From Vicinamibacterales bacterium (GTDB lineage Bacteria; Acidobacteriota; Vicinamibacteria; Vicinamibacterales; UBA8438): a stretch of DNA of 64,000 bases. The stretch spans positions 4,333,268-4,397,267 of the forward strand of contig OZ220728.1 of NCBI GenBank assembly GCA_965116845.1, read 5' to 3'. This document shows positions 17,517-57,881 of this stretch, piece after piece (position 1 is the stretch's first letter; each line of letters starts with the position of its first letter). The notes under the pieces are model-generated. The model had not been told where the DNA came from and made no database searches. It saw only the letters and a program-made list of their open reading frames with translations. The position numbers and the translations under genes were made by a program.

Positions 17517-19082
17517 TCACTGCGCAGGCAGCAGGTTCCGTTCGATCATCAAGCGGCGCAGCAGTCGTGCCGTGCTCTCGCGAACGTAGGAGGTCGCGTT
17601 CAGGGACGTGAACTCCGCCACCTCGAGCGGCGTCTGCCCGGCCTTGTCCTGCACGTCCAGCCGGGCGCCCCGGTCCACGAGGAACTGCACGATGGTGTCC
17701 GCTCCCCGCACGGCCGCGCCATGGAGCGCGGTCCACCCGCACACCAGGCCGGGGAGGTTCCGCGAACCGCCGCCGCCGGTGTAGTTGCGGGGGGTGCAGT
17801 CGGGGTCCGTCCCCTGCCGGTGATGGATGTCGGCACCGCGGTCCACCAGGAACCGGACGGCCTGCAGCGCGTCGACCTCCGAACCCGGCGTGGCCCCGTC
17901 CGTGAAGCCCACGCCCGCGGCCACCATGAGCGGCGTCGTGCCTCGTCGCGTCGCATGGTGGACGTCCGCTCCGTGCTCCGCCAGCACGCGCATCGTGCGG
18001 ATGTCGCCGGCACGGGCCGCCTGCCAGAACCCCGTGACGCCCAGCATCGCCTGTGGCTCCACGGAGAAGCCCGTGATGATGCCTCCGCCGAGCGCCTGCG
18101 TCAGTCCGGCGTTCACGTCGGCCCCGGCCGCGAGGAGCACCGCCAGCAGGTCCCGCGCATCGAGCCTGCCGGTGCCGGTCACCTCCGCGTCCGGCCCCAT
18201 CAGGCCCTCCCAGTTCATCGTCGACACCAGTGCGTGCAGCGCCGTCTGCCCCTCGCTGTCGGCATTCGGATCGGCACCCTGCTCCAGGAGATACCGCGCG
18301 AGCTCGTAGTGGGCATTCCCGATGGCCAGGACCAGCGCGGTCGTTCCTCGAGGCCAACCATCGTCCTCGTCATCGTCGCCTGCGCCGGCAGCGCCCGGCG
18401 CACCTCGCGGCGCAGGCAGTCTCTCGTTGGCGCTGGCACCGGCTCCGATCAACAGCCTGACCGACTCGAGATCGCCGGCCCGAACCGCAAACAACAGGGG
18501 CGTGAAGCCGACGACCGAGCGGGCGTGCACGTCGGCCCCCCGGGCGAGCAGGAGACGGACCAGGGAGGGATGCATCTCGGCCGCGGCCGTCATCAGGAGG
18601 GTCTGACCGCTTGCGAGCTCCGTCGCGCCGAGGTCCGCCCCGTGCGCGATCAGCAGCTGCACGACGTCGACGCTGCCGGTGCGTACGGCCGTCATGAGCG
18701 CCGTCTCGCCTTCGGTCCGGGCCTCGGGATCCGCTCCGGCGTCGAGGAGCCGGGCCACCACCTCCGCGCTCCGGTTGGTGCAGGCGAGCGAGAGCGGGGT
18801 CACGCCGTAGTCGTTGGTGAGGTTGACGTCCGCGCCCGCGCCGATCAGCAGCTCCACGATCGCCGGGTCGTCACGGTGCGCCGCCCAGTGGAGCGCGGTC
18901 GTGCCGTCGGGCTCGGGGGTATCGACGTCCATCCGTCCGGCGTCCAGGAGCGTGCGCACCGTCGCCGAGTCCCCTGCCCTGGCGGCTGCCACGACCGATT
19001 CGCCAGGCTGGACGGCCGCGCCTCCCGCGGTCAGCAGGAAGACCAGCATCGACAGCGCACCGAACCAACCCGGGCGCATCAT
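17517..19082 (-). CDS. Sec-exported ankyrin-repeat protein (about 10 or more repeats)
   Basis: ATG 19082 lies 7 nt after AGGAGG. Signal MMRPGWFGALSMLVFLLTAGGAAV. Repeated G.TALHWAA...VELLI.AGADVN units run throughout. Confidence 0.85.
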   Translation of the reverse strand: MMRPGWFGALSMLVFLLTAGGAAVQPGESVVAAARAGDSATVRTLLDAGRMDVDTPEPDGTTALHWAAHRDDPAIVELLIGAGADVNLTNDYGVTPLSLACTNRSAEVVARLLDAGADPEARTEGETALMTAVRTGSVDVVQLLIAHGADLGATELASGQTLLMTAAAEMHPSLVRLLLARGADVHARSVVGFTPLLFAVRAGDLESVRLLIGAGASANERLPAPRGAPGAAGAGDDDEDDGWPRGTTALVLAIGNAHYELARYLLEQGADPNADSEGQTALHALVSTMNWEGLMGPDAEVTGTGRLDARDLLAVLLAAGADVNAGLTQALGGGIITGFSVEPQAMLGVTGFWQAARAGDIRTMRVLAEHGADVHHATRRGTTPLMVAAGVGFTDGATPGSEVDALQAVRFLVDRGADIHHRQGTDPDCTPRNYTGGGGSRNLPGLVCGWTALHGAAVRGADTIVQFLVDRGARLDVQDKAGQTPLEVAEFTSLNATSYVRESTARLLRRLMIERNLLPAQ

Positions 19083-19199
19083 CACGACCTCCTGCTTCAC
19101 GACCTCCCGCCTCGAGGCCGGCGTGCTACGGACCCGCCCGCGCCGTAAGCCACGCACGCAGGGTGCGACAGAGGCCCCGGCTGCGTCACGCCCCGGCAC

Positions 19200-20549
19200 T
19201 CACACATCCGGGAGCGTTTCGGTCACGCCCGCCGCATTGCCGAACTGCTCCGCCGGCGCCCCGAACTTGTCCAGCAGGCTCAGCAGCAGGCTCGACATCG
19301 GCGTGCGATGCGGATAGACGAGGTGCCGTCCGCCCCTGAGGGCGCCCGCGCCGCCTCCGGCCAGGACGACGGGCAGCGGATAGTGCGCGTGGGTCTGCGG
19401 ATCGGCCATCCCGCCGCCGTACAGCAGCAGCGAGTGGTCGAGCAGAGAGCCGTCGCCGTCGGGGGTCGCGCGGAGCTTCTCGAGGAACGACGCGAAGCCC
19501 TGCACGTGATAGGCGTTCACCCGGGCCAGCTTCGCGATCTTCTCGGGGTTGTACTGATGGTGCGACAGATTGTGGTGCCCCTCCGGCACGCCGATGCTCG
19601 GATAGGTGCGGGTGGTCGTCTCGCGTCCGAGGAGCAGGGTCGTCACCCGCGTCAGGTCGGCCTGGAAAGCCACCACCTGCAGGTCGTACATCAGCGCCAT
19701 GTGCTCGTCGAAGGTCTCGGGAACGCCGAGCGGGGTCGCGGGCGGCTGCAGCGGATTCTCCCGGTTGCGGCTCTCCACCAACTGGATGCGGCGTTCGACA
19801 TCCCGAATGCTGTCGAGGTACTGGTCCAGCTTCTGCCGATCCCGGGGACCGAGCCGCCCCGAGAGCCGCCCCAGCTTGGCGCCGACCGCGTCGAGGATGC
19901 TGGCGTTCTCGCGGTTGATGCGGCTGCGCTCCTCGGCGCTCGCCCCGTCTCCGAAGAGCCGTTCGAAGACGACGCGGGGGTTCATCTCCATCGGCAACGG
20001 GAGCGTCGGCGAGCGCCAGGAGATCGTGTTGACGTACGCGCAGGCGTACCCCGCATCGCAGTCGCCGACGAACTCGGCCGAATCGAGCGCCAGCTCCAGC
20101 GACGAGAGCGGCGTGTCCCGACCGATCTGCTGCGCGATGAGCTGATCGACGGTGGTGCCGGCCCGGACCTCCACGCCGGCAGTCTTCTTCGCACGCACGC
20201 CGGTCAGGTACACGGCCGAGCTGCGGGCGTGCTCGCCGGCCCCGTCGTTCTCCGACTCGGCGTTCGCATGACCCAGGTTGCTCAGCACGACCACCTGATC
20301 GCGAAGCGGCTCGAGCGACTGCAGCGTCGGCGAGAACCGGAACCCCTCCCCCGTTTCGACCGGGGTCCAGGAGTCCATCGCCGCGCCGTTCGGGATGTAC
20401 ACGAATCCGATGCGCCGCACCGGCTTCGCCGGGGTCCTGGCCAGCGCGGTCAGGGCTGGCGCCATGGCGTCCAGCAGCGGCAGGGCCACCATCGCCCCCA
20501 TCCCTCGGAGCACCGTCCGCCTCGGCAGGGCCGCTCTCGTGATGAACAT
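19200..20549 (-). CDS. DUF1552 domain-containing protein (Tat signal)
   Basis: MFITRAALPRRTVLRGMGAMVALPLLDAM is the typical N-terminus of this family. Paired with the upstream DUF1592-family gene. Confidence 0.85.
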   Translation of the reverse strand: MFITRAALPRRTVLRGMGAMVALPLLDAMAPALTALARTPAKPVRRIGFVYIPNGAAMDSWTPVETGEGFRFSPTLQSLEPLRDQVVVLSNLGHANAESENDGAGEHARSSAVYLTGVRAKKTAGVEVRAGTTVDQLIAQQIGRDTPLSSLELALDSAEFVGDCDAGYACAYVNTISWRSPTLPLPMEMNPRVVFERLFGDGASAEERSRINRENASILDAVGAKLGRLSGRLGPRDRQKLDQYLDSIRDVERRIQLVESRNRENPLQPPATPLGVPETFDEHMALMYDLQVVAFQADLTRVTTLLLGRETTTRTYPSIGVPEGHHNLSHHQYNPEKIAKLARVNAYHVQGFASFLEKLRATPDGDGSLLDHSLLLYGGGMADPQTHAHYPLPVVLAGGGAGALRGGRHLVYPHRTPMSSLLLSLLDKFGAPAEQFGNAAGVTETLPDV

Positions 20550-20587
20550 CCGTCTGCCTCGAGCCTGTCTGCTGCCAGTCTCCGCCG

Positions 20588-23107
20588 TCACGGCTGCGCC
20601 AGGAGTCTGCGCCGCGGAACCGGCGCTGCAAGAGTCTCGCGCGCGCGCAGGCTCCCAACGCGCCCGTCAGGGCGCGCCAGCGCATCGGCGTCCGGCTCCG
20701 GCACCCTTCTCAACTGAAAGGGCGCGCTCCGGACGACGCCCAACACGATGGACGAAAAGCGGTAGTCGGTCGCTGCCGCATCCCGCAGGATGCCGCGGAC
20801 GGCCGGCATGTCGCGGTACTCGACCCCGCGCCCCAGGGCGTAGGTGAGCAGCTTCTCGGTGAGCGTCTGCACGAACTGGTCGGAGCGGCCCACGAGGATG
20901 TCGCGCAGACCGGCCGCCCCCTCGAACGCCGTCCCGTCCGGCATCACGCCGGAGACGTCGATCGGCTCGGCGGAGCTCCCGCGTACCGTTCGAAGATGGC
21001 CGACCGCGTCGAAAGACTCGAGCGCGAGACCCAGCGGATCCATCTGGTTGTGGCAGCCCGCGCAGGCCGGGTTCGCGCGATGGCGCTCCATGCGTTCGCG
21101 CATCGTCAGGCGCGACAGGTCGGCCGCGTCCTGGAGCGGTGGCACGCCGGGAGGCGGCTCCGGAGGCGGCGTCCCGAGGATGTTCTCCAGGATCCACTTC
21201 CCGCGGACCACCGGCGACGTCCGTGTGGCGTGGGAGGTGACCGTCAGCAGGCTCCCCTGCCCCAGCAGCCCGCCCCGCTGATCGTCATCCGCCAATGCGA
21301 TGCGCCGGAAGCGGCTTCCGTACACCCCCTCGATCCCGTAGTGCCGCGCCAGCCGCTCGTTGACGAACGTGTAGTTCGCGGTCAGCAGATCGATGACGCT
21401 GCGATCCTCCCGCAGGATGCTGTCGAACAGCAGCTCCGTCTCCTGCCGCATCGCCTGCCGCAGGTTGTCGTCGTAGTCCGGGTACAGGGCCCCGTTGGGG
21501 TACGTCGCGCCCATGTTGCGGGTGTACAGCCACTGCGCGGCAAAGTTGTTCACCAGCTCTTCCGCGCGCGGATCGACCAGCATGCGGCGTACCTGCTGCT
21601 CCAGGACCGCCGGCTCGCGCAGCCGCCCGGCTTCCGCCAGCGCCAGCAGCTCCTCGTCCGGAATGCTGCTCCAGAGAAAGAACGACAGCCGCGAAGCGAG
21701 CTCCAGGTCACTGACCGGATGGGCAATGCCCGTTGCGGAACCCGGGAGCGCCTCCTCGATCCGGAACAGGAACTCCGGCTGCACCAGCAGCGCGCGCAGC
21801 GCCATCTGGATTCCGGACTCGAAGCCCGCCGTCCGTCGCGCGGTCTCATAGTGAACGAGCAGCTCCCGCACCTCTGCGTCGGTAGGCGGCCGGCGGTACG
21901 CGCGCCGGGCCAGGGCGCCGACGATCTCCTCGGCGCAGGGAGCCTCCTCGGCCACCGTCTCGGGATGGCAGACGAATATGCGCCGCCGGCTCGGCGTGTC
22001 CCCGGAGCCGGTGACGCGATACGGCCCCTCGACGAACACCCGGTGAACCTGCGGCAGCCCGGAAACGCTGCCGTAGCTGACGTTGCTCGCGATGTACGGC
22101 TTCCGCAGCAGCGGCCGGGATCCCGGCCGAAACTCGATGCCCCCCGTCTCCCGCTGCGCGTGGCTCTGCTTGGGGAACGTGACGGTGATCTCGTGCAGGC
22201 CAGCCGTCACCGGGACCCGCACGACCAGGTGCGAATCGAGATCGTGACCGCGGACATCCTGGCCGAAGTACCGGCCGATGCCCCCGGCTTCGAGCCGCTT
22301 CACGAACGCCCCGTCCAGGCGGACATCCACCGGCTGCACGAGAGCCAGCCCGCGCACGGTCCCCCAGGTGGTTCGAGCGAGCCGGACCCGAATGTCGTAC
22401 TCGCCGTCGACCGGGAACGTGTGGCGAATCACCGTGCCGCCGCGCGTCCCGAACGGCAATCCGTCGACGTGGTAATCCTGGGAGAGATCGGGGGCGACGC
22501 TGTAAGTCGAGGCCGTGGGCGCGATCGACGTATCCCCGACCGCGGCCCGGCTGATCCTCAGGGCGGCCGACAGATAGCGCTCCAGCATGTACGGCGAGAC
22601 GTTGAGGACCTCGGCGATGTTGTCGAAGCCGTAGCTCGAATCGTCGGGCGGCAACACGGAGGCCACGTCGATCTCGAGCGCCAGCAAGTCCCGGATCGCG
22701 TTGCCGTACTCCGTCCGGTTCAGGCGGTGCAGGGTGCGACGCCCCGGATCGGGGTCGGCCGCGGCCGCACGGTCGACAGCTCCTTCCAGCGTGGCGACGA
22801 CGCGGTCGACGGTGGCTGCGTCCGGTCGCCGCCGCCCCGCCGGCGGCATCAGCCCCCCGCGCAGCTTGCGGATTGCCTTCTCCCACACCTCCGCGCCCGC
22901 GGCGATGTGATGCGTGTCCGCCCGGTCGAGCAGCAGGTCGGCCGTCCGGAGCCGTTCGTTGTGGCACGCCACGCAGTACGTGTCGAGCACCTCTCGGAGC
23001 TCGGCGCCGGACATCGGGGGCGCATGCTCCTGCGCTCCGACGCTCCCGCTCGCCCCACCGACGGACAGCACCCACGCCGCCACGAGCGCGCAAGCCAGCC
23101 GTTTCAT
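20588..23107 (-). CDS. DUF1592/DUF1595/DUF1587/DUF1588/DUF1585 family protein with cytochrome c motifs
   Basis: ATG 23107 with a signal peptide. CVACHNERLRTADLLLD (planctomycete cytochrome C-type CxxCH), HRLNRTEYGNAIRDLL, and C-terminal NPACAGCHNQMDPLGLALESFD. Confidence 0.85.
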   Translation of the reverse strand: MKRLACALVAAWVLSVGGASGSVGAQEHAPPMSGAELREVLDTYCVACHNERLRTADLLLDRADTHHIAAGAEVWEKAIRKLRGGLMPPAGRRRPDAATVDRVVATLEGAVDRAAAADPDPGRRTLHRLNRTEYGNAIRDLLALEIDVASVLPPDDSSYGFDNIAEVLNVSPYMLERYLSAALRISRAAVGDTSIAPTASTYSVAPDLSQDYHVDGLPFGTRGGTVIRHTFPVDGEYDIRVRLARTTWGTVRGLALVQPVDVRLDGAFVKRLEAGGIGRYFGQDVRGHDLDSHLVVRVPVTAGLHEITVTFPKQSHAQRETGGIEFRPGSRPLLRKPYIASNVSYGSVSGLPQVHRVFVEGPYRVTGSGDTPSRRRIFVCHPETVAEEAPCAEEIVGALARRAYRRPPTDAEVRELLVHYETARRTAGFESGIQMALRALLVQPEFLFRIEEALPGSATGIAHPVSDLELASRLSFFLWSSIPDEELLALAEAGRLREPAVLEQQVRRMLVDPRAEELVNNFAAQWLYTRNMGATYPNGALYPDYDDNLRQAMRQETELLFDSILREDRSVIDLLTANYTFVNERLARHYGIEGVYGSRFRRIALADDDQRGGLLGQGSLLTVTSHATRTSPVVRGKWILENILGTPPPEPPPGVPPLQDAADLSRLTMRERMERHRANPACAGCHNQMDPLGLALESFDAVGHLRTVRGSSAEPIDVSGVMPDGTAFEGAAGLRDILVGRSDQFVQTLTEKLLTYALGRGVEYRDMPAVRGILRDAAATDYRFSSIVLGVVRSAPFQLRRVPEPDADALARPDGRVGSLRARETLAAPVPRRRLLAQP

Positions 23108-23256
23108 GCCGTCACCGTCTTCACAGGCAGGGTTCCCGGACTGACTGGATGTCCCCCGACGCCCACCTCGCCGCCAACGGCCGCTCCTGATCCGCCTCGC
23201 GCAACATAGCTCGGCAGGCACGGTTGCGCAACCCGGCGAGCGCGCCGACCGTGGAC

Positions 23257-23865
23257 TCAGCCGCCGCGCCAGCCGACGCTTGCCGCCCACTCGTCGCGCG
23301 CTCTCACGTACGCCTGATGAGCTGCCGGCGGCCGCTCTCCCTCGGCCCCCGCCCGGCTGCGCGCCTTCTCGATCTGTTCCTCCAGCGGGGGGAGCCCGAC
23401 GGCGAGTCGGCGCTCGGCCAGCCGATGCGGGTCCTCCACCTCGCCTGGAGAGAGCTTCCCCTCGACGTCCCAATCCAGCTGGGTCCCGTACCGCTGGGGC
23501 CGGCCCTCGAAGAACCGGATCCGGTCCTCGAGCATGGCCGCGTGGGCTGGGTCCGCCCGTCCCTCCCGCGCGGCCGTCTCGAGGAGAGCTGACGCGCTGC
23601 GGAGCAGGTCGGGCTCGGCGATCGCGTGTTGCAGGATCAGCCAGGCAGCCTCTGCGCCGTCGGGACCGACGAGGTCCGTCCCCGGCCATCCGACGGACTC
23701 GATCACTCGCCGCAGGCGTTGCGCATTCCGCGCATGGACGCGGGCCATCCGGGGCTCGTAGCCGGCGTCGAACAGGCTGCCCGAGGCGGCGAGCTCAGCC
23801 CGCGTGACGCGGTCCAGCGCAGCCATCTCCAGGAGGTCCCGCCGGAGAGACTCGTTCCTCGGCAT
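23257..23865 (-). CDS. hypothetical protein (possibly DUF6624-like)
   Basis: 202-aa ORF with normal composition. The GWPG..LVG..GA.AAWLILQH motif is one I associate with DUF6624. No search possible. Confidence 0.55.
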   Translation of the reverse strand: MPRNESLRRDLLEMAALDRVTRAELAASGSLFDAGYEPRMARVHARNAQRLRRVIESVGWPGTDLVGPDGAEAAWLILQHAIAEPDLLRSASALLETAAREGRADPAHAAMLEDRIRFFEGRPQRYGTQLDWDVEGKLSPGEVEDPHRLAERRLAVGLPPLEEQIEKARSRAGAEGERPPAAHQAYVRARDEWAASVGWRGG

Positions 23866-24003
23866 CGTCGAACCGTGCGGCAGCCGGGTGCTACGACCGG
23901 CCTACGGGGTCACGTCCCACGACCGCTCCCAGGGCCGGAGCGGACGCCGTCGGGCGATGAGGGGCAGGTCCTGCCGCTGCAACTCCGCTGGAGCAAGGCG
24001 CAC

Positions 24004-24225
24004 TCACTCGACGCCGGTCACCACGGACCACAGGTACAGCAACATGCCGGCACCCATGAGCGCCGCGCCCGGCACGGCGAACAGGAAGAACGAGACCGGG
24101 TGGTTCCAGAAGAACGTGGCCAGCTCCACGCCGAGCCCCGACACGATCAGCAGGCCGGACAGCCGCAGCCGCCCGGGCAGTCCCCCCGGCAGCCGCGGCA
24201 GGCGTCCCCGGCTCCTCGTGCTCAT
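24004..24225 (-). CDS. small two-helix membrane protein, translationally coupled to the NapC/NirT-like gene
   Basis: 73 aa, two hydrophobic helices. ATGA start/stop overlap with the upstream gene at 24222-24225. Confidence 0.5.
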   Translation of the reverse strand: MSTRSRGRLPRLPGGLPGRLRLSGLLIVSGLGVELATFFWNHPVSFFLFAVPGAALMGAGMLLYLWSVVTGVE

Positions 24226-24839
24226 CGTGCGGTCCCCGGGTCCCAGCGCGGGAACCGATCGAGTTGCGCCACTTCATGTACCAGGTTGTGGCACATCACG
24301 CAGGACCTCGTCCCCTCCCGCAGGTCGGCCAGAAAGCGTGCATGGGCGGCCTGCTCCTCGTAGGAGCGGCCGCCCCGGTGGCAGGCGAGGCACGCGCGGT
24401 TCTCGAACGGCTCGTAGAGCTCGACGGGATCGGAGACCGTCCCCCACACGGCGTGCCACACGTGCCGCACGCCCCGCACCTTGTCGTCGACGCCGCCGAA
24501 CATCGTGTAGTTCGTATGGCAGGTGTAACAGGCGCGGTCCACGGGAACGCGCCGGTTCTGGTAGTGCGCCGCCGGCAGGAACCGCGGATCGTCGACGAGG
24601 AGGCTCTGCCGCCAGGGCTCCATCCGGTGACAGGACAGGCAGAACGTCGTCGTCTTGGCCTGCTCGTAGTGCCGGACCGCGCCGCCCAGCAGCACGAGCC
24701 CGGGCAGCGCGAAGAGGGCCGCGAAGGCGGCGATCCTGCCCCCGAGCGTGGCCGCCGCCTCGGGGCGGCGGACCACGACCGCGATGAGCACAAGGGCCGC
24801 AACGGCGAGGACGCCCAGGCTGAGGTCGGCGCCGGTCAT
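24222..24839 (-). CDS. NapC/NirT-family tetrahaem cytochrome c (membrane-anchored)
   Basis: Four CxxCH motifs (CLSCH, CYTCH, CLACH, CVMCH). N-terminal hydrophobic helices. Confidence 0.85.
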   Translation of the reverse strand: MTGADLSLGVLAVAALVLIAVVVRRPEAAATLGGRIAAFAALFALPGLVLLGGAVRHYEQAKTTTFCLSCHRMEPWRQSLLVDDPRFLPAAHYQNRRVPVDRACYTCHTNYTMFGGVDDKVRGVRHVWHAVWGTVSDPVELYEPFENRACLACHRGGRSYEEQAAHARFLADLREGTRSCVMCHNLVHEVAQLDRFPRWDPGTAR

Positions 24840-24861
24840 CGAAGAGGCTCCGTGCCGCCGT

Positions 24862-26160
24862 CTAGCGGCGCTCGCGCAACTCCTCGGCCAGCGTCCGGAT
24901 CTCGGTCAGGTCCTGCACCATCTCGCTCCAGCCGTACCACAGGGAGTAGTCGGGGTTGTTGTGGAAGGCGCCCTGGAAGGTCCGCATCCGGTGCTCCAGG
25001 TGCATCCTGAACAGGCGCTGCTCGATCACGGACGGCGCGTCGTGGAACGCCAGCAGGTCCGGGTAGTCGTAGGCGTAGTGGTCCGGCTTGCGCAGCACGC
25101 CGTCGGCGTAGAGATCGGCGACGATGCGGATGGCTTCGGCCAGCAGGCGGTCCGCCTCCCGGATCATGTCGTCGCCCTTCTGGAGCTCCGCGCGCACGAA
25201 GTTGCCCGAGTGGCACTCCTCGCAGACCGCGATCATGCGGTCCCGTTCCCGCTGCCAGTCCTCCTGGGTCAGCCGGGCGACGTCGGCCTGCTCGACGACC
25301 TCCAGGCGCGGCGTCGGGTTGCCTTCGGGGTCGAGCACCCCGAGGGCCTGCAGGATGGTCGCCTGGTCGGCCGCCCACGCCGGATCCTCGGACAGGGGCA
25401 GGCGCACAGCCAGGAACCCCCACGCGGTCCGGACCTCGTGGTCTCCCTGCGGCATGTGACACGTTTGGCAGGTGGGCGCAGCGGCCTCGTCCGGCAGCGT
25501 CCCGTTCTGCTTCAGGAGGTGCCGCACGCCGTGCTTCGACGACGAGTACATCTCCCACTGCGGGTGGTCGATGCCCATGTGGCACGTCCGGCACGCCTGC
25601 GGCTCCCGCGCCTCCGCCACCGAGAACAGGTGGCGGGTATGACAGGCGTCGCACGACGCCAGGCCGAACGTGGCGCCGTCGGCCCGCAACTGCCGCATGT
25701 CGTCCTCGGTCTTGATCCCGACCCGGTGGCACCCGCCGCAGCCCTTCATGCCCTCGGTGAGCGCCATCGGCAGCCAGTGCGTCGTCGGCATCGCGTTCAT
25801 GCTGGCCCACGCCAGGGCGTGCTTGCCGCCCGTGAACTGCTCCGCCTGGATCGGATGGCAGTCCGCGCACACCTCGACGGTCGCCATCCAGACGAGGGCG
25901 ACGTCTTCCGCCGTGCGGTGCCCGTCGCCGTGACACAGGCTGCACTCGACGCCTGCCTCTCTGTGCCGGCTCAGCTCCCAGTCCGTGACGACACCGGGCG
26001 TCGCCTCGCGATGACACCCGACGCAGGAGGAAGCATCGGCGGCCTCGGGGGGAGCGTCCCCGCCGCCGCACGCGGCGAGGCACGCAACGAGGAACGGGAG
26101 GCACCACGCCGCGACGGTGAAACGACGGCCGTCAGGAAGCAGCGCCATCACTCCCATCAT
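24862..26160 (-). CDS. octahaem cytochrome c of the hydroxylamine oxidoreductase (HAO) family, lipoprotein-type signal
   Basis: Eight CxxCH motifs (CVGCH, CSLCH, CADCH, CGGCH, CDACH, CRTCH, CQTCH, CEECH). LVACLAAC lipobox. C-terminal FQGAFHNNPDYSLWYGWSEM region resembles HAO-family proteins. Confidence 0.8.
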   Translation of the reverse strand: MMGVMALLPDGRRFTVAAWCLPFLVACLAACGGGDAPPEAADASSCVGCHREATPGVVTDWELSRHREAGVECSLCHGDGHRTAEDVALVWMATVEVCADCHPIQAEQFTGGKHALAWASMNAMPTTHWLPMALTEGMKGCGGCHRVGIKTEDDMRQLRADGATFGLASCDACHTRHLFSVAEAREPQACRTCHMGIDHPQWEMYSSSKHGVRHLLKQNGTLPDEAAAPTCQTCHMPQGDHEVRTAWGFLAVRLPLSEDPAWAADQATILQALGVLDPEGNPTPRLEVVEQADVARLTQEDWQRERDRMIAVCEECHSGNFVRAELQKGDDMIREADRLLAEAIRIVADLYADGVLRKPDHYAYDYPDLLAFHDAPSVIEQRLFRMHLEHRMRTFQGAFHNNPDYSLWYGWSEMVQDLTEIRTLAEELRERR

Positions 26161-26549
26161 AGTAGGCCGCGCCGTTCGACGAGAATCGGCGCGCGCTCCT
26201 GGTCCAGCTCCCCCGCCCCTGTTCCGCAGCGCGGAGAGCGGCGAGGCCGATGTGAGCGCTCGCGGCTCGTGCCGGACGGCGCGAGCACGACCGCGCTGTC
26301 ATCGCGCGCTGATCAGCGCGCGCTCCGGGAGGCGGGCCTCCCGGGTGCAACCGACCGACGCACCCGCACCGGCCCGAGGTCGGGGCCGTCGGAGGTCCGT
26401 TCGCAAGGGACTGGAGGGCTGGATCATCGGTTGACGAGCGCGGCTACAATACGGGCACGCTCGGGGTGTCATATCCCGTTCCGGCGCGCTCTTTGTGCCG
26501 GAGATCGCCGTTCATCGGCTCGCCGGGTCTATCGAGGAGGACGAGAGTT

Positions 26550-27215
26550 ATGAAGCGTCATCTGCCTTTCCTGTTCGCGTTGGCCGTCGCACTCGTGCTG
26601 CCGCCGGCCGCTGCGCACGCGCATTTCCAGTTGGTGGAACCGCCGCCCTGGATCGTAATGAACGCCCTCGGCGACCCGCAGAAGGTCGGACCGTGCGGCG
26701 GCAACCCCAACGGCGACAACAGCGAGATTCTGTCCGGCATCGTCACCGAGGTCACCGGCGGGACGGATCTGCATCTGAAGATCCAGGAGACGATCTTCCA
26801 CTCGGGCCACTACCGGGTCGCGCTCTCGGTGAACTCCCGCAACGAGCTGCCGGCGGATCCGACCGCGGTCGAGAAGTACACGGACCGGGGCCTCTATTCG
26901 GTCTGGGGCGTAATCCAGAGCCCGCCGCAGGTCCCGATCCTCGCCGACGGGCTGTTCCGGCACTACCCGGAGGGGGACCAGCGCGCGTCGTTCCGGCCCG
27001 AGACCCCGATGGATCCCTGGGAGGCCGACATCCCCATCCCGAACATCAACTGCGAGAAGTGCACGCTGCAGGTGATTCAGTTCATGGCCGACCACGTGTA
27101 CAACCAGCCGGGCGGCTACTCCTACCACCACTGCGCCGACCTCAAGATCACGGCGGACCCGTCGAAGCCCATCGACGACCGCTGGCCGGCGCCGGCGGAC
27201 ATGACCAACGACTGA
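26550..27215 (+). CDS. LPMO-like exported protein with N-terminal histidine (SCE4755-like family, from memory)
   Basis: ATG 26550 after GAGGAGG. Signal ends AAHA, so the mature protein begins HFQLVEPPPW. Also GDPQKVGPCGG, HSGHYRVAL and a C-terminal HHCADLKI. Confidence 0.7.
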   Translation: MKRHLPFLFALAVALVLPPAAAHAHFQLVEPPPWIVMNALGDPQKVGPCGGNPNGDNSEILSGIVTEVTGGTDLHLKIQETIFHSGHYRVALSVNSRNELPADPTAVEKYTDRGLYSVWGVIQSPPQVPILADGLFRHYPEGDQRASFRPETPMDPWEADIPIPNINCEKCTLQVIQFMADHVYNQPGGYSYHHCADLKITADPSKPIDDRWPAPADMTND

Positions 27216-31813: not shown

Positions 31814-31879
31814 CACGGTGCAGACGCCTGGCAGGCATGGCTGGGCGCCGAGCGGAGCCGCTGGCGACGATTGGCGGGC
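31799..31879. repeat. direct repeat copy A (about 81 bp) spanning the TM2 gene stop
   Basis: Hand alignment with 36863-36943 gives about 70 identical of 82 columns. It includes identical blocks GAGGCTGCGCCGT, AGGCATGGCTGGGCGC and GGCGACGATTGGCGGGC. Confidence 0.85.
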
Positions 31880-32008
31880 CAGGCGGACGGGCGAAGCGCC
31901 CACGCCCCACCGCCGTTCTCACCCGCCGTTGACGCTGCGACGGCGCGTCCTCTAAGGTGCGTTGCTGAGGCCCGGCGCCGCGTTCCGCTTCCAGGGGGTT
32001 TGAGACGC

Positions 32009-35000
32009 ATGCGTATCGTCCCTCGCTCCACGAGCACCTTTCGGCACGGCGCCTGGCTGGTTGCGCTGTCGGCCGTCGTGGCCTGCTCCACCTGGGGCCT
32101 CCTCGCCCAGAACGCGGCCCCCGAGCCCGAGCCTCTTCCCGAGACGGTTCGCTTCAACCGCGACATCCGCCCGATCCTCTCGGACAAGTGCTACACGTGC
32201 CACGGCCCCGATTCCGGCACCCGGCGGGCGGGGCTGCGCCTCGACGACGCCGACTCCGTCCGCAAGGCGGCGACCCGCACCACGCCGGCGCAGGGCGCGC
32301 TGGCCGTAATTGCGCCTGGCGACCCGGGCGGCAGCGTCCTGATGCACCGCATCACCGCGACCGATCCCCAACGGCGCATGCCCTTCCGCGAGGAGCCGCT
32401 CGAGCCCCGCGAGGTGGCGCTGATCACCCGCTGGATCGAGCAAGGCGCGCAGTACGAGCCGCACTGGTCGTTCATCCCGCCCGTGCGGTCCGCTCCGCCG
32501 GCAGTGCGCGATGCGGCGTGGCCCCGCAACGCGATTGACGCGTTCGTCCTCGACCGCCTGGAGCACGAGGGGCTGCGCCCGTCTCCGGAAGCCGACCGCG
32601 CAACGCTCCTGCGGCGGGTAACGCTCGACCTGACCGGCCTGCCGCCGACCCCCGGCGAGGTGGCGGCGTTCCTGGGCGACGACTCGCCGGACGCCTACGA
32701 GAAGGCCGTCGACCGACTGCTGGCATCGCCCCGCTACGGCGAGCGGATGGCGGCATCCTGGCTGGCCGCGGCCCGCTTCGCGGACTCGTCCGGGTACTTC
32801 GCCGACCAGCGCCGCGATATGTCCCGCTGGCGCGACTGGGTCATCGACGCCTTCAACCGCAACCTGCCCTTCGACCGGTTCACCATCGAGCAGATTGCCG
32901 GCGACCTGCTGCCGGACGCGACGCTCGACCAGCGCATTGCCACCGGGTTCAACCGCAACCACCGCATGAACTCCGAGATGGGCATCATCCCGGAGGAGTT
33001 CTTCGTCGAGAACGTCGTCGACCGCGTCTCGACGACCGGCACCGTCTGGATGGGACTGACCGTGGGCTGCGCCCGCTGCCACGACCACAAGTTCGACCCG
33101 CTCCAGCAGGAGGAGTTCTACCAGCTCTTCGCCTACTTCAACAGCATCGCCGAGTCGGGCATCGGGCAGAAGACCGGCAACTCGCCGCCGCTGGTCTACG
33201 CCCCGACGCCGGAGCAGCAGGAAGAGCTGCGGGCAATCGAGAATCGCATCGCGGCTGCCGAGGCGCAGCTCGCAGAACTGCAGCCGGTAATCGAAGAAGC
33301 GCAGCGAGCGTGGGAGCAGTCGCTGGGCGACGCCGATCCGATCGTGGGATCCCCTGACGAGGGCCTGACGGCCCACTTCCCGCTGGCGTCCGCCAGGGAG
33401 CGCCGCTTCGACGGCCGGCGCTACGTGGACGGCGGCTCGGCCGGCCGCCGTGGTCCGAAGACGCTCGACGCCTACCTGCAGGATCCCGACGACAACGCTT
33501 TCGACGGGGTCTACGGCGGCGGGCGGGCGATGACTCTCGCGGCCTGGATCGAGCCGGAGGCGCCCAGCGGCCCCGTCATCACGCGCACGCTCCTCGACAC
33601 GCCGCGGGGGCAGGGCTTCAGCCTGCTGCTTGTCGACGGCAAGCTGCAGCTCAACCTCGTCGGCGGCAACACCGGCCTCTGGATGGACAACGACTCGGGA
33701 CACGTCGAGACGGCGGAGCCCCTGGCCCTGGACGGCCCGCGTCACGTGGCGGCGACCTACGACGGCTCGCGGCAGATCGAGGGCATCACCCTCTACTTGG
33801 ACGGCGCGCCGCAGAGGCTCGCCGTGCTCTTCAACGGCCTCGGTCCGCAGGACCCGACCGAGCATCCGCTTCGCATCGGCGCTGGCGGAAGCCCCGCACG
33901 CTTCCGGGGATCGATCTGGGACGTCCGCGCGTACGACCGGGCCCTGCCGGCGGAGCGGATCGCCGCGCTTGCGGAGACCGCTTCCCTCGGGGAGATCGCG
34001 GCGCTTCCCCCCGCGGAGCGGACGCCGCGGCAGGCGCGCAAGATCGATTCGTACTTTCTCGCCCACCAGGCCAACGATCGGATCGACGCGGTTCGCATCG
34101 AGGCGCGGCGGCGCGAACGACCCGGCGTGACGCCGCCACGCTACCCGAAGCCGGACGTCACGGTGGGCAAGCTCCTGGACGAGCTGAGAGCCGCCCGACG
34201 GGAACGCGCCGCGCTCCGCAACACCTTCCCGACCGTGATGGTGATGCAGGAGCTGCCGGAGCCGCGCGACGCCCACCTGCTGGTCCGCGGCAACTACGAC
34301 CGGCCCGGCAAGCGGGTGGCGCGCGCGACGCCCGCGTGGCTGCCGCCGCTGCCGGAAGGCGCCCCCAACAACCGGCTCGGCCTGGCCCTGTGGCTGGTCG
34401 ACCCGTCGCATCCCCTGACGGCGCGGATCGCGGTGAACCGCTACTGGCAGATGCTCTTCGGCACCGGGCTCGTGAAGAGCGCCGACAACTTCGGCTCGCA
34501 GGGCGATTTGCCCTCGCATCCGGCGCTGCTCGACTGGCTGGCCACCGAGTTCGTGAGGACCGGCTGGGACCTGAAGGCGATGCAGAGGCTCCTCGTCACC
34601 AGCGCGACCTACCGCCAGGCGTCGACCGTCACGCCGGAGCTGCTCGAGCGAGACGAGGACAACCGGCTGCTGGCGCGCGGGCCGCGCTACCGCCTGCCGG
34701 CCGAGATGCTGCGCGACCAGCTTCTGGCCGTCTCCGGTCTGCTCGTCGAGAAGATCGGCGGTCCGTCCGTGAAGCCGTACCAGCCCGACGGGCTGTGGGC
34801 GAGCCAGTTCGGCACCTACGAGCAGGCAGAGGGCGACGACCTCTACCGGCGCAGCCTCTACACCTACGTGCGGCGCAGCGTGCTGCCGCCGGCGATGTCG
34901 CTCTTCGACGTCACCGACCGGGACAACCCGCACGTCGGAACCGACCCGACGAACACGCCGCTCCAGGCGCTGAACCTGATGAACGACGTGACCGCTCTCG

Positions 35001-35302
35001 AGGCCGCGCGGATGCTCGCGGAGCGGATGCTCACGGAGGGCGGCCCGGCGGCCGCGGACCGGTTGGGCTTCGCCTTCCGGATGGCTACCGCCCGGCGACC
35101 CTCCGAGGCCGAGCTCGAGGTACTCCGGAACAGCCTCGCGGCGTTCGGCGAACGGTACGGGAACGACCCGGAGGCGGCGCTCGAGCTTCTGAGTCACGGC
35201 GAACACCCGCGGAACGAGGGCCTCGACGTCGCCGAGCTGGCCGCGCACGCCGCGGTTGCGAGTCTGATCCTCAACCTCGACGAGGTCCTGACGCAGCACT
35301 GA
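32009..35302 (+). CDS. PSD1-type protein: planctomycete cytochrome C domain + DUF1549 + LamG-like + DUF1553
   Basis: ATG 32009 with a signal peptide. DKCYTCHGPDSGTRRAGLRLD, AIDAFVLDRLEHEGLRPSPEADRATLLRRVTLDLTGLPPTP, CARCHDHKFDP, NRYWQMLFGTGLV. Confidence 0.9.
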   Translation: MRIVPRSTSTFRHGAWLVALSAVVACSTWGLLAQNAAPEPEPLPETVRFNRDIRPILSDKCYTCHGPDSGTRRAGLRLDDADSVRKAATRTTPAQGALAVIAPGDPGGSVLMHRITATDPQRRMPFREEPLEPREVALITRWIEQGAQYEPHWSFIPPVRSAPPAVRDAAWPRNAIDAFVLDRLEHEGLRPSPEADRATLLRRVTLDLTGLPPTPGEVAAFLGDDSPDAYEKAVDRLLASPRYGERMAASWLAAARFADSSGYFADQRRDMSRWRDWVIDAFNRNLPFDRFTIEQIAGDLLPDATLDQRIATGFNRNHRMNSEMGIIPEEFFVENVVDRVSTTGTVWMGLTVGCARCHDHKFDPLQQEEFYQLFAYFNSIAESGIGQKTGNSPPLVYAPTPEQQEELRAIENRIAAAEAQLAELQPVIEEAQRAWEQSLGDADPIVGSPDEGLTAHFPLASARERRFDGRRYVDGGSAGRRGPKTLDAYLQDPDDNAFDGVYGGGRAMTLAAWIEPEAPSGPVITRTLLDTPRGQGFSLLLVDGKLQLNLVGGNTGLWMDNDSGHVETAEPLALDGPRHVAATYDGSRQIEGITLYLDGAPQRLAVLFNGLGPQDPTEHPLRIGAGGSPARFRGSIWDVRAYDRALPAERIAALAETASLGEIAALPPAERTPRQARKIDSYFLAHQANDRIDAVRIEARRRERPGVTPPRYPKPDVTVGKLLDELRAARRERAALRNTFPTVMVMQELPEPRDAHLLVRGNYDRPGKRVARATPAWLPPLPEGAPNNRLGLALWLVDPSHPLTARIAVNRYWQMLFGTGLVKSADNFGSQGDLPSHPALLDWLATEFVRTGWDLKAMQRLLVTSATYRQASTVTPELLERDEDNRLLARGPRYRLPAEMLRDQLLAVSGLLVEKIGGPSVKPYQPDGLWASQFGTYEQAEGDDLYRRSLYTYVRRSVLPPAMSLFDVTDRDNPHVGTDPTNTPLQALNLMNDVTALEAARMLAERMLTEGGPAAADRLGFAFRMATARRPSEAELEVLRNSLAAFGERYGNDPEAALELLSHGEHPRNEGLDVAELAAHAAVASLILNLDEVLTQH

Positions 35303-35383
35303 GAGTCTCGCGCCGGGGGGCACCGCAAGCTCCGGGCCGGGCACGGCGGAGTCGACCGACCAGAGCGAAGGGATGACAGCGAG

Positions 35384-36862
35384 ATGGCGGACCCGAGAGA
35401 CGAATACGCACGCTTGATGACCCGGCGCTCGTTCTTCCGTGCCAGCGGGACCGGCCTCGGTTTCGCGGCGCTGGCGACGCTGCTCCGCGAGGACCTCGGC
35501 GCCGTGCAGACCGGCTCGGAGGCGTTCGGGGGCCTCCCCGACCTGCCGCACTTCGCCCCCAAGGCGAAGCGGGTCATCTACCTCTGCATGTCGGGAGCGC
35601 CGTCGCACCTCGATCTGTTCGACCACAAGCCGGGCCTGCAGCGGATGGCAGGCGAGGAGTTGCCGGACTCGGTGCGGGAGCGCCTACGGCTCAGCACGAT
35701 GACGGCGACGCAGAACACGCTGCCGATCATCCCGACCGTCTTCGAGTTCGCGCAGCGCGGACAGTCCGGCGCGTGGCTGAGCGAGCTGCTGCCGCATACC
35801 GCGAAGGTCGCCGACAACCTCTGCTTCGTGAAGTCGCTCTGGAACAGCCAACTCAATCACGACCCCGCCCAGACGCACCTCTTCACCGGCTTCCAGCTCA
35901 CGGGACGGCCCACCATCGGCGCGTGGGTCTCCTACGCGCTCGGCAGCGAGAACGACAACCTCCCGGCGTACGTGGCGATGCCGACCACCGGCTCGAGCAC
36001 GGGCGGCGGCCCGTTCCTGTCGCGCTACTGGGGCAGCGGATTCCTCCCCGCCCGCTACGGGGGCGTCAAGTTCGGGACGGGGCCGGACCCGGTGCTCTAC
36101 CTGTCCAACCCGAAGGGCTTCGACGCCGCCGACCGGCGCCGCTTCCTCGACGACCTGGCCGCGCTCAACCAGATGCAGCTCGAGGAATCGGGCGACCCGG
36201 AGATTGCGGCCCGCATCGAGCAGTACGAGATGGCCGCGCGCATGCAGCTCTCGGTGCCGGAGCTGACGGACCTGTCCACCGAGCCGGAGAGCACGTTCGA
36301 GCTGTACGGGGACGACGCCCGCCGGCAGGGCACCTTCGCGGCCAACTGCCTGCTGGCGCGGCGGCTGGCGGAGCGGGGCGTGCGCTACGTGATGCTGTCG
36401 CACACCGGCTGGGACCACCACAGCGACCTGCCGAACCAGCTTCCGCGGCAGACGCGCGAGGTCGACCAGGGCTCGGCTGCCCTGGTGCACGACCTGCAGC
36501 AGCGCGGCATGCTCGACGAGACGCTCGTGGTCTGGGGCGGCGAGTTCGGGCGCACGGTGTACGGCCAGTTCAACGCCGCCAACGACACCCGGGCCACGGC
36601 CAGCAGCTACGGGCGCGACCACAACCCCCGCTGCTACACCGTCTGGATGGCCGGCGGAGGCATCAAGCCCGGCATCACCCACGGGGAGACCGACGACTTC
36701 AGCGCCAGCATCGTGCGCGACCCGGTGAGCATCCACGACCTGCAGGCGACCATCCTGCACTGCGTGGGCATCGACCACCGGCGCCTCACCTACCGCTACC
36801 AGGGCCGAGACTTCCGCCTGACCGACGTCGGCGGCCGCATCGTGGAGGAGATCCTCGCATAG
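35384..36862 (+). CDS. DUF1501 domain-containing protein (sulfatase-like fold, Tat signal)
   Basis: TRRSFFRASGTGLGFAALATLL, then YLCMSGAPSHLDLFDHKP, and C-terminal GRDHN...MAGGGIKPG. Confidence 0.9.
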   Translation: MADPRDEYARLMTRRSFFRASGTGLGFAALATLLREDLGAVQTGSEAFGGLPDLPHFAPKAKRVIYLCMSGAPSHLDLFDHKPGLQRMAGEELPDSVRERLRLSTMTATQNTLPIIPTVFEFAQRGQSGAWLSELLPHTAKVADNLCFVKSLWNSQLNHDPAQTHLFTGFQLTGRPTIGAWVSYALGSENDNLPAYVAMPTTGSSTGGGPFLSRYWGSGFLPARYGGVKFGTGPDPVLYLSNPKGFDAADRRRFLDDLAALNQMQLEESGDPEIAARIEQYEMAARMQLSVPELTDLSTEPESTFELYGDDARRQGTFAANCLLARRLAERGVRYVMLSHTGWDHHSDLPNQLPRQTREVDQGSAALVHDLQQRGMLDETLVVWGGEFGRTVYGQFNAANDTRATASSYGRDHNPRCYTVWMAGGGIKPGITHGETDDFSASIVRDPVSIHDLQATILHCVGIDHRRLTYRYQGRDFRLTDVGGRIVEEILA

Positions 36863-38059: not shown

Positions 38060-38644
38060 TCACGGCGACACGATGACCACGGCGCGGCAGCGCCTGCGGC
38101 CGATGCGGCGGTACCCGTGAGGCCGAGTGGCCCGGAAGTACGCCGAGTCCTCCGCCTCGAGGACCAGCTCGTGATCCTCCACGTACAGGCCGAGCGTGCC
38201 GGTGAGCACGAAAAGGAACTCGTCGCCCTCGTGCCGGTGGAGCCGCACGTCGTCCACCGGCATCGACTCGAACTCGGCCAGGTAGGCGCTGAGCTTCCGC
38301 TCCGTCGCCCCGTAGTCGAGAGACTCGAAGCGATAGGCGGCGTTCGTTTCGCCCGGCCGGTCCGGGAAGCGAAGGCGCTCGGCCCTTCGCATGAGTGCGA
38401 CCTCCGAGCCTCCGATGCTGAAGAAGTGGCCGAGGTCGACGCTGAACACCAGCGCGATCCGCAACAGCGTGGGCAGCGTCGGGTACATCTTGCCGCGTTC
38501 GATCTTGGAGAGGAGCGACGGCGAGAGCCCGGTGTGCCGGCCGAGCTCCGCCAGCCCCATCCGCTTGCGCCGGCGCAGCTCGCGGAGCTTGGCGCCGATG
38601 GCGTAGCGATCCAGCCCCTCGGTCAGGGCGGCAGTCAGCGCCAT
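38060..38644 (-). CDS. XRE-family transcriptional regulator with C-terminal cupin domain
   Basis: LRELRRRKRMGLAELGRHTGLSPSLLSKIERG (HTH_3), then HRHEGDEFLFVLTGTL cupin motif. The start overlaps the desaturase stop by 10 nt. Confidence 0.85.
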   Translation of the reverse strand: MALTAALTEGLDRYAIGAKLRELRRRKRMGLAELGRHTGLSPSLLSKIERGKMYPTLPTLLRIALVFSVDLGHFFSIGGSEVALMRRAERLRFPDRPGETNAAYRFESLDYGATERKLSAYLAEFESMPVDDVRLHRHEGDEFLFVLTGTLGLYVEDHELVLEAEDSAYFRATRPHGYRRIGRRRCRAVVIVSP

Positions 38645-39645: not shown

Positions 39646-39676
39646 GATAGTCGGAGTTCGTCGCGAGGCTCCTCGC

Positions 39677-42839: not shown

Positions 42840-43021
42840 GCGGTTCGCGTCGGCGCCGTCCTCTGCGTGACAGGCCCTACTGTAATGTTACGGAGCCTCG
42901 CCCCGCCCGGAATGGCGCCGGCCGCGGGGTAGTGATTTTCGGGACAATGCGGCCGCCCGGACTGCACCCTCACGCATGTCCGCCCGTCCGCGCGCCGGAA
43001 GATCGGCGATGCTATGGGGAG

Positions 43022-57843: not shown

Positions 57844-57881
57844 CGCCGCTGCCTCATCGCCGCTGCCTCATCGCTGCCGCC

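Follow-up and report, generated by a model that had tools for sequence, protein, structure and literature searches.

The three-gene operon at positions 24004-26160 of a 64,000-nucleotide stretch of a Vicinamibacterales genome of the Acidobacteriota, probably from soil (assembly GCA_965116845.1, contig OZ220728.1, positions 4,333,268 to 4,397,267; the whole stretch is referred to here as the window) encodes an octahaem c-type cytochrome, a NapC/NirT-family tetrahaem cytochrome and a 73-residue membrane protein, and it raises the question of what such a set of genes does and in which direction electrons run through it. Our analysis assigns the octahaem protein to the hydroxylamine oxidoreductase (HAO) family and places a tryptophan at the position of the cross-linking tyrosine. 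On balance, the operon probably encodes a quinol-dependent reductase of nitrite or another nitrogen oxide (hydroxylamine or nitric oxide, NO). The octahaem would work reductively because it is without the tyrosine that turns HAO into an oxidase. The operon and its landmarks, in window coordinates, are the following:

24862-26160, minus strand: octahaem open reading frame (ORF), 432 amino acids; a predicted lipoprotein and HAO-family c-type cytochrome, and the predicted catalytic subunit
26068-26160, minus strand: signal peptide and lipobox (L-A-A-C), with Cys31 as the predicted lipid-modified first mature residue
25726-25740, minus strand: fourth CxxCH motif (CGGCH, C141-H145), presumed from knowledge of HAO to mark the catalytic-haem position
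25564-25569, minus strand: Asp198-His199 distal pair, directly after the sixth haem motif (CRTCHMGIDH)
24934-24939, minus strand: Trp408-Tyr409, with Trp408 at the cross-link position (His400 + 8) and Tyr409 adjacent to it
24840-24861, minus strand: spacer of 22 nucleotides between the octahaem gene and the NapC-like gene, from the ORF map
24222-24839, minus strand: NapC/NirT-family tetrahaem ORF (the NapC-like gene), 205 amino acids; predicted quinone-pool interface
24222-24225, minus strand: ATGA overlap, in the sequence itself, of the TGA stop of the NapC-like gene with the ATG of the 73-residue ORF
24004-24225, minus strand: ORF of a small two-helix membrane protein, 73 amino acids, of an unannotated family
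24097-24126, minus strand: conserved E-x2-T-x2-W-x-H-P motif of the 73-residue protein
26161-26465, no strand assigned: intergenic region of 305 bp between the operon and a divergent gene; presumed promoter, by position only

The gene anatomy agreed with what the original prediction had described: an ORF of 432 residues with exactly eight CxxCH motifs and an LAAC lipobox, a four-haem gene of the NapC/NirT type 22 nucleotides downstream, and a 73-residue protein with two hydrophobic segments coupled to it by the ATGA overlap. The GC content at third codon positions was 0.91-0.95 in all three ORFs, and 0.95 in the smallest, in a genome of about 70% GC, which is the signature of real genes in this genome; eight haem motifs together with the strong family matches described below are far beyond chance. 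A scan of positions 23200-26700 showed no sigma-70-like promoter or intrinsic terminator consensus; thus, with no such promoter consensus, the promoter was assigned by position only.

The haem motifs of the octahaem protein lie at C46, C73, C98, C141, C170, C190, C231 and C313, all of them CxxCH, and its N-terminus reads MMGVMALLPDGRRFTVAAWCLPFLVACLAAC and then GGGD, with LAAC as the lipobox. The protein matched PF13447 in Pfam with 87.9 bits (E = 9e-25; cut-off, 21.9 bits). Its significant sequence matches in the PDB were 6h5l, 4n4j, 6t5e, 6hif, 1fgj/4fas/6m0p and 4qo5 only. The best solved relative was Kustc0458 (6h5l_A), with E values of 8e-31 for the single sequence and 2.7e-41 for a family profile built from 26 relatives, followed by Kuenenia and Brocadia HOX, HDH, Nitrosomonas HAO (NeHAO) and Ignicoccus IhOCC. 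Because of the PF13447 match and because only HAO-type proteins appeared among the solved-structure matches, the octahaem is, by sequence, a member of the HAO family, which bears out the earlier suggestion that its C-terminal region is HAO-like. The scenario that had been named as able to overturn this assignment, an octahaem of the tetrathionate or nitrite reductase type, was excluded: the other octahaem families considered (OTR, ONR and MccA) gave no significant sequence or fold match, and all eight motifs are CxxCH.

A structural comparison gave the same picture at lower confidence. The AlphaFold2 model of the octahaem, built without haems from an alignment of 26 sequences, was poor (mean predicted local distance difference test score [pLDDT], 57.8), as is usual for haem proteins predicted without their haems, and the fold result is therefore only supportive. 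With this model, Foldseek returned only HAO-family chains as significant, with Kustc0458 again the best, and NrfA, with an E value of 0.85, was not significant. Within the poor model, helices at residues 319-352, 378-399 and 403-431 had pLDDT values mostly above 80, and these C-terminal helices align to those of Kustc0458, HOX and NeHAO. Three long C-terminal helices form the trimer interface of HAO.

The fourth haem occupies what we take, from known HAO structures, to be the catalytic five-coordinate position. In the alignments, CRTCHMGIDH of the window protein is matched by CATCHSGvDH in NeHAO and by CRVCHMGIDH in Kuenenia HOX, which makes Asp198-His199 the counterpart of the distal acid-base pair Asp267-His268 of NeHAO (chain numbering). 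Thus, the distal residues that the original prediction had singled out for scoring are kept. The pair was invariant among 26 close relatives; in 54 distant representatives, the aspartate was kept in 35 and the histidine in 37.

The position that decides between oxidative and reductive members was compared by its spacing from a conserved histidine. In NeHAO, the cross-link tyrosine Tyr467 sits at His459 + 8 (local sequence HVNPGGWTYTEGW; HMMER chain numbering), and in the oxidative Kuenenia HOX the same spacing from His407 leads to Tyr415 (HMSMYNQTYG; chain numbering). In Kustc0458, His + 8 is a tryptophan (HAQQDVSWWWG), and the crystal shows no cross-link (PMC8042395). In the window protein, His400 + 8 is Trp408 (local sequence HNNPDYSLWYGW), and this segment aligns without a gap to Kustc0458, with Trp408 on its tryptophan. 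The GW..M anchor downstream places Tyr409 opposite Glu469 of NeHAO rather than Tyr467, and HMMER set Tyr467 opposite either Leu407 or Trp408, depending on gap placement. The 120 closest homologs among those listed all carried the fixed pattern H-x-[NS]-P-D-[YF]-x-[LF]-W-Y-G-W. Among the 54 distant representatives, position 408 was tryptophan in 29 and position 409 was tyrosine in 17. We conclude from these alignments that the canonical cross-link tyrosine is replaced by tryptophan in the predicted protein, and a haem-tyrosine cross-link is unlikely to form. The passage of PMC8940962 that cites Haase 2017 reports a tryptophan at the tyrosine position of epsilon-Hao as well. The original prediction had named candidate tyrosines in NPDYSLWYGW and left the presence of the cross-linking residue undecided; after scoring against the Nitrosomonas and anammox enzymes, the canonical site can be assigned to Trp408, and an ambiguity remains over Tyr409, which directly adjoins it. 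Trp408 at His + 8, as in Kustc0458, thus supports the earlier view that the layout is nearer to a reverse HAO with a NapC/NrfH-like module than to a nitrifier cluster.

On this reading, the three gene products would assemble into a single enzyme complex that is bound to the membrane and serves respiration or detoxification. The NapC-like protein and the 73-residue protein, with two helices each, would make a four-helix membrane anchor at which quinol is oxidised, and the electrons would pass through the four haems of the NapC-like protein to the octahaem. The octahaem, held at a membrane by its N-terminal lipid and presumably trimeric, as its relatives are, would reduce nitrite, and probably hydroxylamine and NO too, at its fourth haem with the assistance of Asp198-His199. 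The product would be ammonium, as in the epsilonproteobacterial epsilon-Hao, or NO, as in Kuenenia HAOr. In the work of Haase et al. from 2017, epsilon-Hao reportedly yields ammonium, and its gene is said usually to adjoin a NapC/NrfH-type gene. The reductive direction is supported because of the tryptophan at the cross-link site and because of experiments on two groups of enzymes without the tyrosine: Kustc0458 converts nitrite to NO and cannot oxidise hydroxylamine (PMC8042395), and four epsilon-Hao enzymes reduce nitrite and hydroxylamine, according to work cited in a passage of the same paper (PMC8042395). Additionally, Caldithrix abyssi reduces nitrate to ammonium without NrfA, via a HAO-like protein (PMC5317091).

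To define how widely this arrangement occurs, relatives of the octahaem were collected in two ways. A protein search gave more than 7,000 clusters, of which the best 120 had 68-95% identity, and a scan of one genome per species gave at least 526 octahaem loci, of which the best 80 (31 of high identity and 49 with a lone octahaem gene) were compared. These 80 loci came from Acidobacteriota, Gemmatimonadota, Latescibacterota, Zixibacteria, Calditrichota, Ignavibacteriota, Bacteroidota, Nitrospirota, Elusimicrobia, Poribacteria and Desulfobacterota, among others, and the octahaem belongs to a very large and highly conserved clade of more than 15 phyla. The nearest loci, at 93-94% identity, were in metagenome-assembled genomes (MAGs) of Vicinamibacterales, and Calditrichota MAGs carried clade members at 67-68% identity. 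All entries for relatives were derived from MAGs and were labeled 'cytochrome C', 'multiheme c-type cytochrome' or 'hydroxylamine dehydrogenase'.

The gene arrangement divided these loci into two forms. The octahaem identity to the window protein was at least 75% in the three-gene form and 65-73% in the lone-gene form. In 31 related loci (L001-L030 except L016, and L033), a NapC-like gene of 53-93% identity came directly after the octahaem gene, and the small ORF came next in 29 of these, with 55-82% identity, which answers the question of small-ORF conservation that the original prediction had raised. Three of the high-identity loci are truncated by contig ends: the contig of L016 stops short of any partner gene, and in L014 and L020 the break falls inside the NapC-like gene. 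The 49 lone-gene loci had no nearby homolog of the NapC-like gene or of the small ORF. In a neighbour-joining tree, the 30 three-gene octahaems that were included formed one clade with no lone-gene member inside it; by this tree, octahaems of the three-gene lipoprotein form make up a single monophyletic subclade, whose members come from Acidobacteriota, Latescibacterota and Gemmatimonadota. Complete chromosomes of Vicinamibacterales and Bryobacterales (for example, OY282382.1, OZ253457.1 and OZ241991.1) carry the module. The lipobox followed the same division. All 31 octahaems with high identity (>=75%), L016 included, had a lipobox and then Gly-Gly; among the lone-gene relatives, a loose lipobox pattern was present in only 2 of 49 (L043 and L070), and the other 47 had a plain Sec-type signal. 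Near-restriction of the lipobox to the subclade that carries a membrane partner fits a membrane-bound assembly. Most members of the clade are lone genes with ordinary signal peptides. Beyond the three genes, the related loci shared synteny at the lineage level only (sodium:solute symporters, an NHL-repeat protein, a dipeptidase and DUF6624).

The neighbours of the 49 lone-gene octahaems were heterogeneous, and the most frequent were Rieske and cytochrome b genes (three loci) and a NapH-like ferredoxin (three loci). In Cytophagia MAGs (L043, 6001-10446; L035; L065), the lone octahaem gene was followed by the Rieske and cytochrome b genes, which recalls the anammox Kuste4574 complex and the neighbourhood of the Caldithrix epsilon-Hao; in L043, a gene for a nine-haem protein also followed. 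Some lone-gene relatives were longer (501-513 residues), and one of them (P0112) had a dockerin-type domain match (PF00404). The octahaem at L038:5998-7503 has as neighbours a nine-haem protein and proteins containing dockerin-like DGDGKV repeats. These dockerin-like features hint at cell-surface or scaffold attachment in some lineages.

The second gene product matched PF03264 (NapC/NirT) with 54.8 bits (cut-off, 24.1 bits) and has four CxxCH motifs, at C67, C104, C150 and C180. It fell far below the NCBIfam cut-offs of both NrfH proper (TIGR03153; 34.0 versus 134.2 bits) and NapC/NirT proper (TIGR02161; 41.7 versus 310.6 bits). The CxxCHxM signature of NrfH was also set aside, the methionine of the first motif being isoleucine in several subfamily members, and a PDB sequence search found no solved relative. 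Two hydrophobic N-terminal segments, at approximately residues 1-32 and 31-57, were kept in the subfamily and are joined by a loop with an invariant R25-P26; the usual anchor of the NapC family is a single helix. The subfamily also had four invariant histidines outside the motifs, with which the protein could bind four bis-His haems.

The 73-residue protein had no match in Pfam or NCBIfam, and the 319 clusters of its family in protein databases were all annotated as 'hypothetical'. It has a positively charged N-terminus, two hydrophobic segments and, at the end of helix 1, the conserved E-x2-T-x2-W-x-H-P motif. In eight diverse members, R19, L20, G30, L31, E34, T37, W40, H42 and F49 were invariant, and two small-ORF members outside the set used to build the family model scored 72.6 and 67.2 bits against it. 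Paralogs of the NapC-like protein at about 48% identity also carried an overlapping small ORF of this family. In three of the four contexts sampled, such pairs, without a HAO gene, adjoined genes for a decahaem MtrA/PioA-like protein, an MtrB/PioB porin and a monohaem cytochrome c. Mto clusters, such as that of Sideroxydans, show this layout beside a CymA-type gene. The three loci, in Acidobacteriota contigs (L081:3428-5880, L084:5523-10130 and L085:2076-6803), are Mto/Pio-type porin-cytochrome clusters with an undescribed small partner for the CymA-like component; we know of no two-helix small partner described for CymA-type proteins.

The NapC-like protein and the 73-residue protein are thus a pair that is inherited together and serves different periplasmic partners. 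Because the pair also occurs without HAO, a portable quinone-pool module is suggested, and we infer that the two proteins form a two-subunit, four-helix unit. These observations point to a NapC/CymA quinol dehydrogenase of two subunits, a form that is so far undescribed, and the small protein may contribute to the anchor or to the quinone site; we speculate that its Glu34 and His42 take part in quinone binding or anchoring. An uncharacterised small membrane protein also adjoins hao in Deferribacter (PMC6896113).

Several observations weigh against a nitrogen-oxide reductase and were considered together with the alternative explanations. Among the 33 larger likely-coding ORFs scanned in the 64-kb window, there was no haoB, cycA (c554), cycB or other nitrogen-cycle gene, in agreement with the earlier statement that haoB and cycA are absent; no nap, nar, nrf, hcp, nor or regulator gene was linked to the operon, either among these window ORFs or with any consistency in the related loci, and no neighbour suggests nitrogen oxides. 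The operon stands as a unit of its own, and its surroundings give no hint of the substrate. No biochemically studied member of the clade was found in the literature searched. The poor AlphaFold model gave no placement of Trp408 and Tyr409 relative to the neighbouring haem. At position +2, the mature lipoprotein has glycine rather than the aspartate that retains lipoproteins in the inner membrane by the Escherichia coli rule, so that inner-membrane retention of the predicted lipoprotein is not assured by that rule. The remaining points concern direction. Tyr409, next to the canonical position, was invariant in all 120 closest homologs, and single-sequence and family-profile alignments to Kuenenia HOX shifted by one residue after the conserved histidine and paired Tyr409 with the cross-link residue Tyr415. 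NapC-family proteins can carry electrons either way, and the NapC-like paralogs sit in Mto/Pio-like clusters, which elsewhere are thought to be iron oxidising and have been proposed to feed quinone. These are the arguments for a hydroxylamine:quinone oxidoreductase running forward, in which Tyr409 (or Tyr405) would cross-link from a slightly shifted position, hydroxylamine would be oxidised to NO or nitrite, and electrons would enter the quinone pool via the NapC-like protein. Such an enzyme would condense the nitrifier HAO-c554-cM552 chain into a compact form for heterotrophic hydroxylamine oxidation, and the nitrifier chain too ends in a NapC/NirT-family cytochrome, cM552 (PMC3701875). However, the spacing from the conserved histidine to the cross-link tyrosine is eight in both oxidative enzymes, and that position here is tryptophan; both the GW..M anchor and the gap-free alignment to Kustc0458 place Tyr409 off the site, and it is position 409 that varies in distant relatives, with 408 mostly tryptophan. 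Additionally, no ammonia monooxygenase, c554 or haoB gene was found nearby among the window ORFs scanned, and in the experiments of Haase et al. in 2017 a tyrosine put into epsilon-Hao reportedly gave neither a P460 band nor oxidase activity. We therefore consider a forward enzyme quite unlikely, and its most specific version, a non-canonical haem-Tyr409 link in a self-contained hydroxylamine:quinone oxidoreductase of heterotrophic Acidobacteriota and relatives, very unlikely; if true, it would mean a widespread, unrecognised route of hydroxylamine oxidation in soil outside the classical nitrifiers.

A role outside nitrogen metabolism, in which the octahaem lipoprotein would carry electrons in the periplasm or at the outer membrane, or would act as terminal reductase for another acceptor, such as metals, humics or sulfur oxyanions, with a CymA-like quinol dehydrogenase as its electron supply, is rather unlikely. 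It would explain why the closest paralogs of the NapC-like and small proteins have decahaem MtrA-like and MtrB/PioB porin genes as neighbours in three of the four contexts sampled and why no nitrogen-cycle neighbour was present in the window or the related loci examined; the glycine at +2 could mean sorting to the outer membrane, and many multihaem enzymes of the superfamily take several substrates in vitro (PMC9250108). However, the invariance of the HAO Asp-His pair in the close family argues for small-molecule catalysis over plain electron transfer, the characterised relatives all act on nitrogen compounds (PMC8042395, PMC9250108), and no porin-cytochrome genes lie beside the operon in the window or in the related loci. 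Alternatively, the chemistry could be the same and the purpose protective, namely, to rid a heterotroph, aerobic or facultative, of toxic NO, hydroxylamine or nitrite. An operon that stands alone without nitrate reductase genes among the window ORFs scanned is consistent with this, as is a wider clade of single genes in varied contexts and phyla, which would be expected of a transferred stress function, and related multihaem reductases such as NrfA detoxify in some organisms (PMC12285233). Nevertheless, a dedicated quinol-oxidising partner in the operon resembles respiratory systems of the NrfHA type more than a simple scavenger, and a purely protective role is likewise rather unlikely. A quinol-dependent reductase of nitrite or a related nitrogen oxide thus remains the explanation that we favour.

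The surroundings of the operon in the window were also recorded. The divergently transcribed gene at 26466-27215 (plus strand) encodes a secreted protein of 249 residues whose mature N-terminus would be a histidine (signal ending in AAAHA, followed by HFQLVEPP) and a weak, sub-threshold match to a BIM1-like copper-binding domain; by sequence, it may be a histidine-brace copper protein, and it was not kept beside the operon in related loci. Directly downstream of the operon lies a DUF6624 gene (23257-23865, minus strand), which is probably outside the module because its position was kept only in the closest Vicinamibacteria loci, L003 and L005. The other window ORFs encode pairs of the DUF1552 and DUF1592 type, an ankyrin-repeat protein, a TauD-like dioxygenase, an esterase, VWA-domain proteins, cyclopropane fatty-acid synthases, PQQ dehydrogenases and a hybrid sensor kinase. 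Two of the gene pairs are of the 'planctomycete type': a DUF1552 protein with a DUF1592/1588/1585/1587/1595 protein that has a cytochrome-c-like N-terminus (19200-23140, minus strand) and a DUF1549/DUF1553 protein with a DUF1501 protein (31871-36862, plus strand). A protein of 560 residues that consists mostly of ankyrin repeats is encoded directly downstream of the DUF1552 gene (17517-19199, minus strand). A lipid-modification cluster at 38635-44293 contains a fatty-acid desaturase gene, two genes for methyltransferases like cyclopropane-fatty-acyl-phospholipid synthase and a gene of the flavin amine-oxidase type. The GC content had a local maximum of 0.773 at 56001-58000, compared with approximately 0.70-0.72 elsewhere, and this maximum coincided with an ORF of 500 residues (56341-57843, minus strand) with very high first-position GC.

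The assignment matters for how such genes are counted. In some metagenomes, the labels 'hao' and 'hydroxylamine dehydrogenase' rank with the most abundant annotations of nitrogen-cycle genes (PMC8940962). Such labels are often read as a sign of nitrification, and counting this clade, without the tyrosine, in that way is probably wrong. The three-gene form would bring the catalytic subunit, the quinone-pool interface and a small anchor protein together in one complete, portable unit, and its activity bears on whether soil nitrogen is retained or lost. That the NapC-like and 73-residue pair also serves porin-cytochrome clusters is a wider by-product of the analysis. The chemistry is what specialists would predict, and the module is a clean, testable unit; no description of the lipoprotein three-gene module or of the 73-residue family was found in the literature searched.

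Among known systems, the epsilon-Hao of Campylobacter, Nautilia and Caminibacter resembles the window operon in having a short HAO-family octahaem without the cross-link tyrosine, a NapC/NrfH-family tetrahaem cytochrome as the presumed quinol-oxidising donor, and a predicted function in nitrite or hydroxylamine reduction. The window operon differs in that its octahaem is a predicted lipoprotein, its tetrahaem partner has two helices, a third subunit of 73 residues is present, and there is no linkage to nap or hcp, neither of which was found in the window ORFs scanned or among the conserved neighbours, unlike in epsilon-Hao loci. The partner gene lies upstream of the octahaem gene in epsilon-Hao loci, and it lies downstream here. 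In Nautilia, hao and the partner gene are not adjacent, and the same paper proposes a 'reverse HURM' (PMC3701875). Kuenenia HAOr (Kustc0458/Kustc0457; 6h5l) has the tryptophan at His + 8 and the Asp-His pair in common with the window octahaem, at approximately 26-30% identity. However, the window octahaem is about 85 residues shorter and has tyrosine at His + 9, where HAOr has tryptophan, and HAOr is soluble with a dihaem cytochrome partner, whereas the window octahaem gene adjoins a four-haem NapC-type gene.

NrfHA shares the logic of a membrane tetrahaem cytochrome that takes electrons from quinol and passes them to a periplasmic multihaem nitrite reductase, the genes of the two being adjacent. 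Its catalytic subunit is a pentahaem protein with CxxCK, whereas the window octahaem is of the HAO type with a His-ligated CxxCH at the active haem, and the window partner fails to reach the cut-off of the NrfH model, contains an additional helix and is accompanied by an extra small subunit. The nitrifier module (HAO, c554 and cM552) also combines a HAO-family octahaem with a NapC/NirT-family membrane cytochrome, but the window operon has no canonical tyrosine, no c554 and no haoB, its octahaem is without the longer C-terminus of the nitrifier protein, and its predicted direction is the opposite one. The Mto/Pio/Mtr clusters contain the NapC-like paralogs with their small partner, and in the window the corresponding module would serve a HAO-type enzyme. 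Finally, Kuste4574 is part of the anammox Rieske/cytochrome b complex R/b-3, and the Caldithrix epsilon-Hao is encoded beside Rieske and cytochrome b genes (PMC12485887, PMC5317091). HAO-like proteins without the tyrosine are thus wired to different quinol-oxidising modules, and the module in the window is of the NapC type, not of the Rieske/cytochrome b type.

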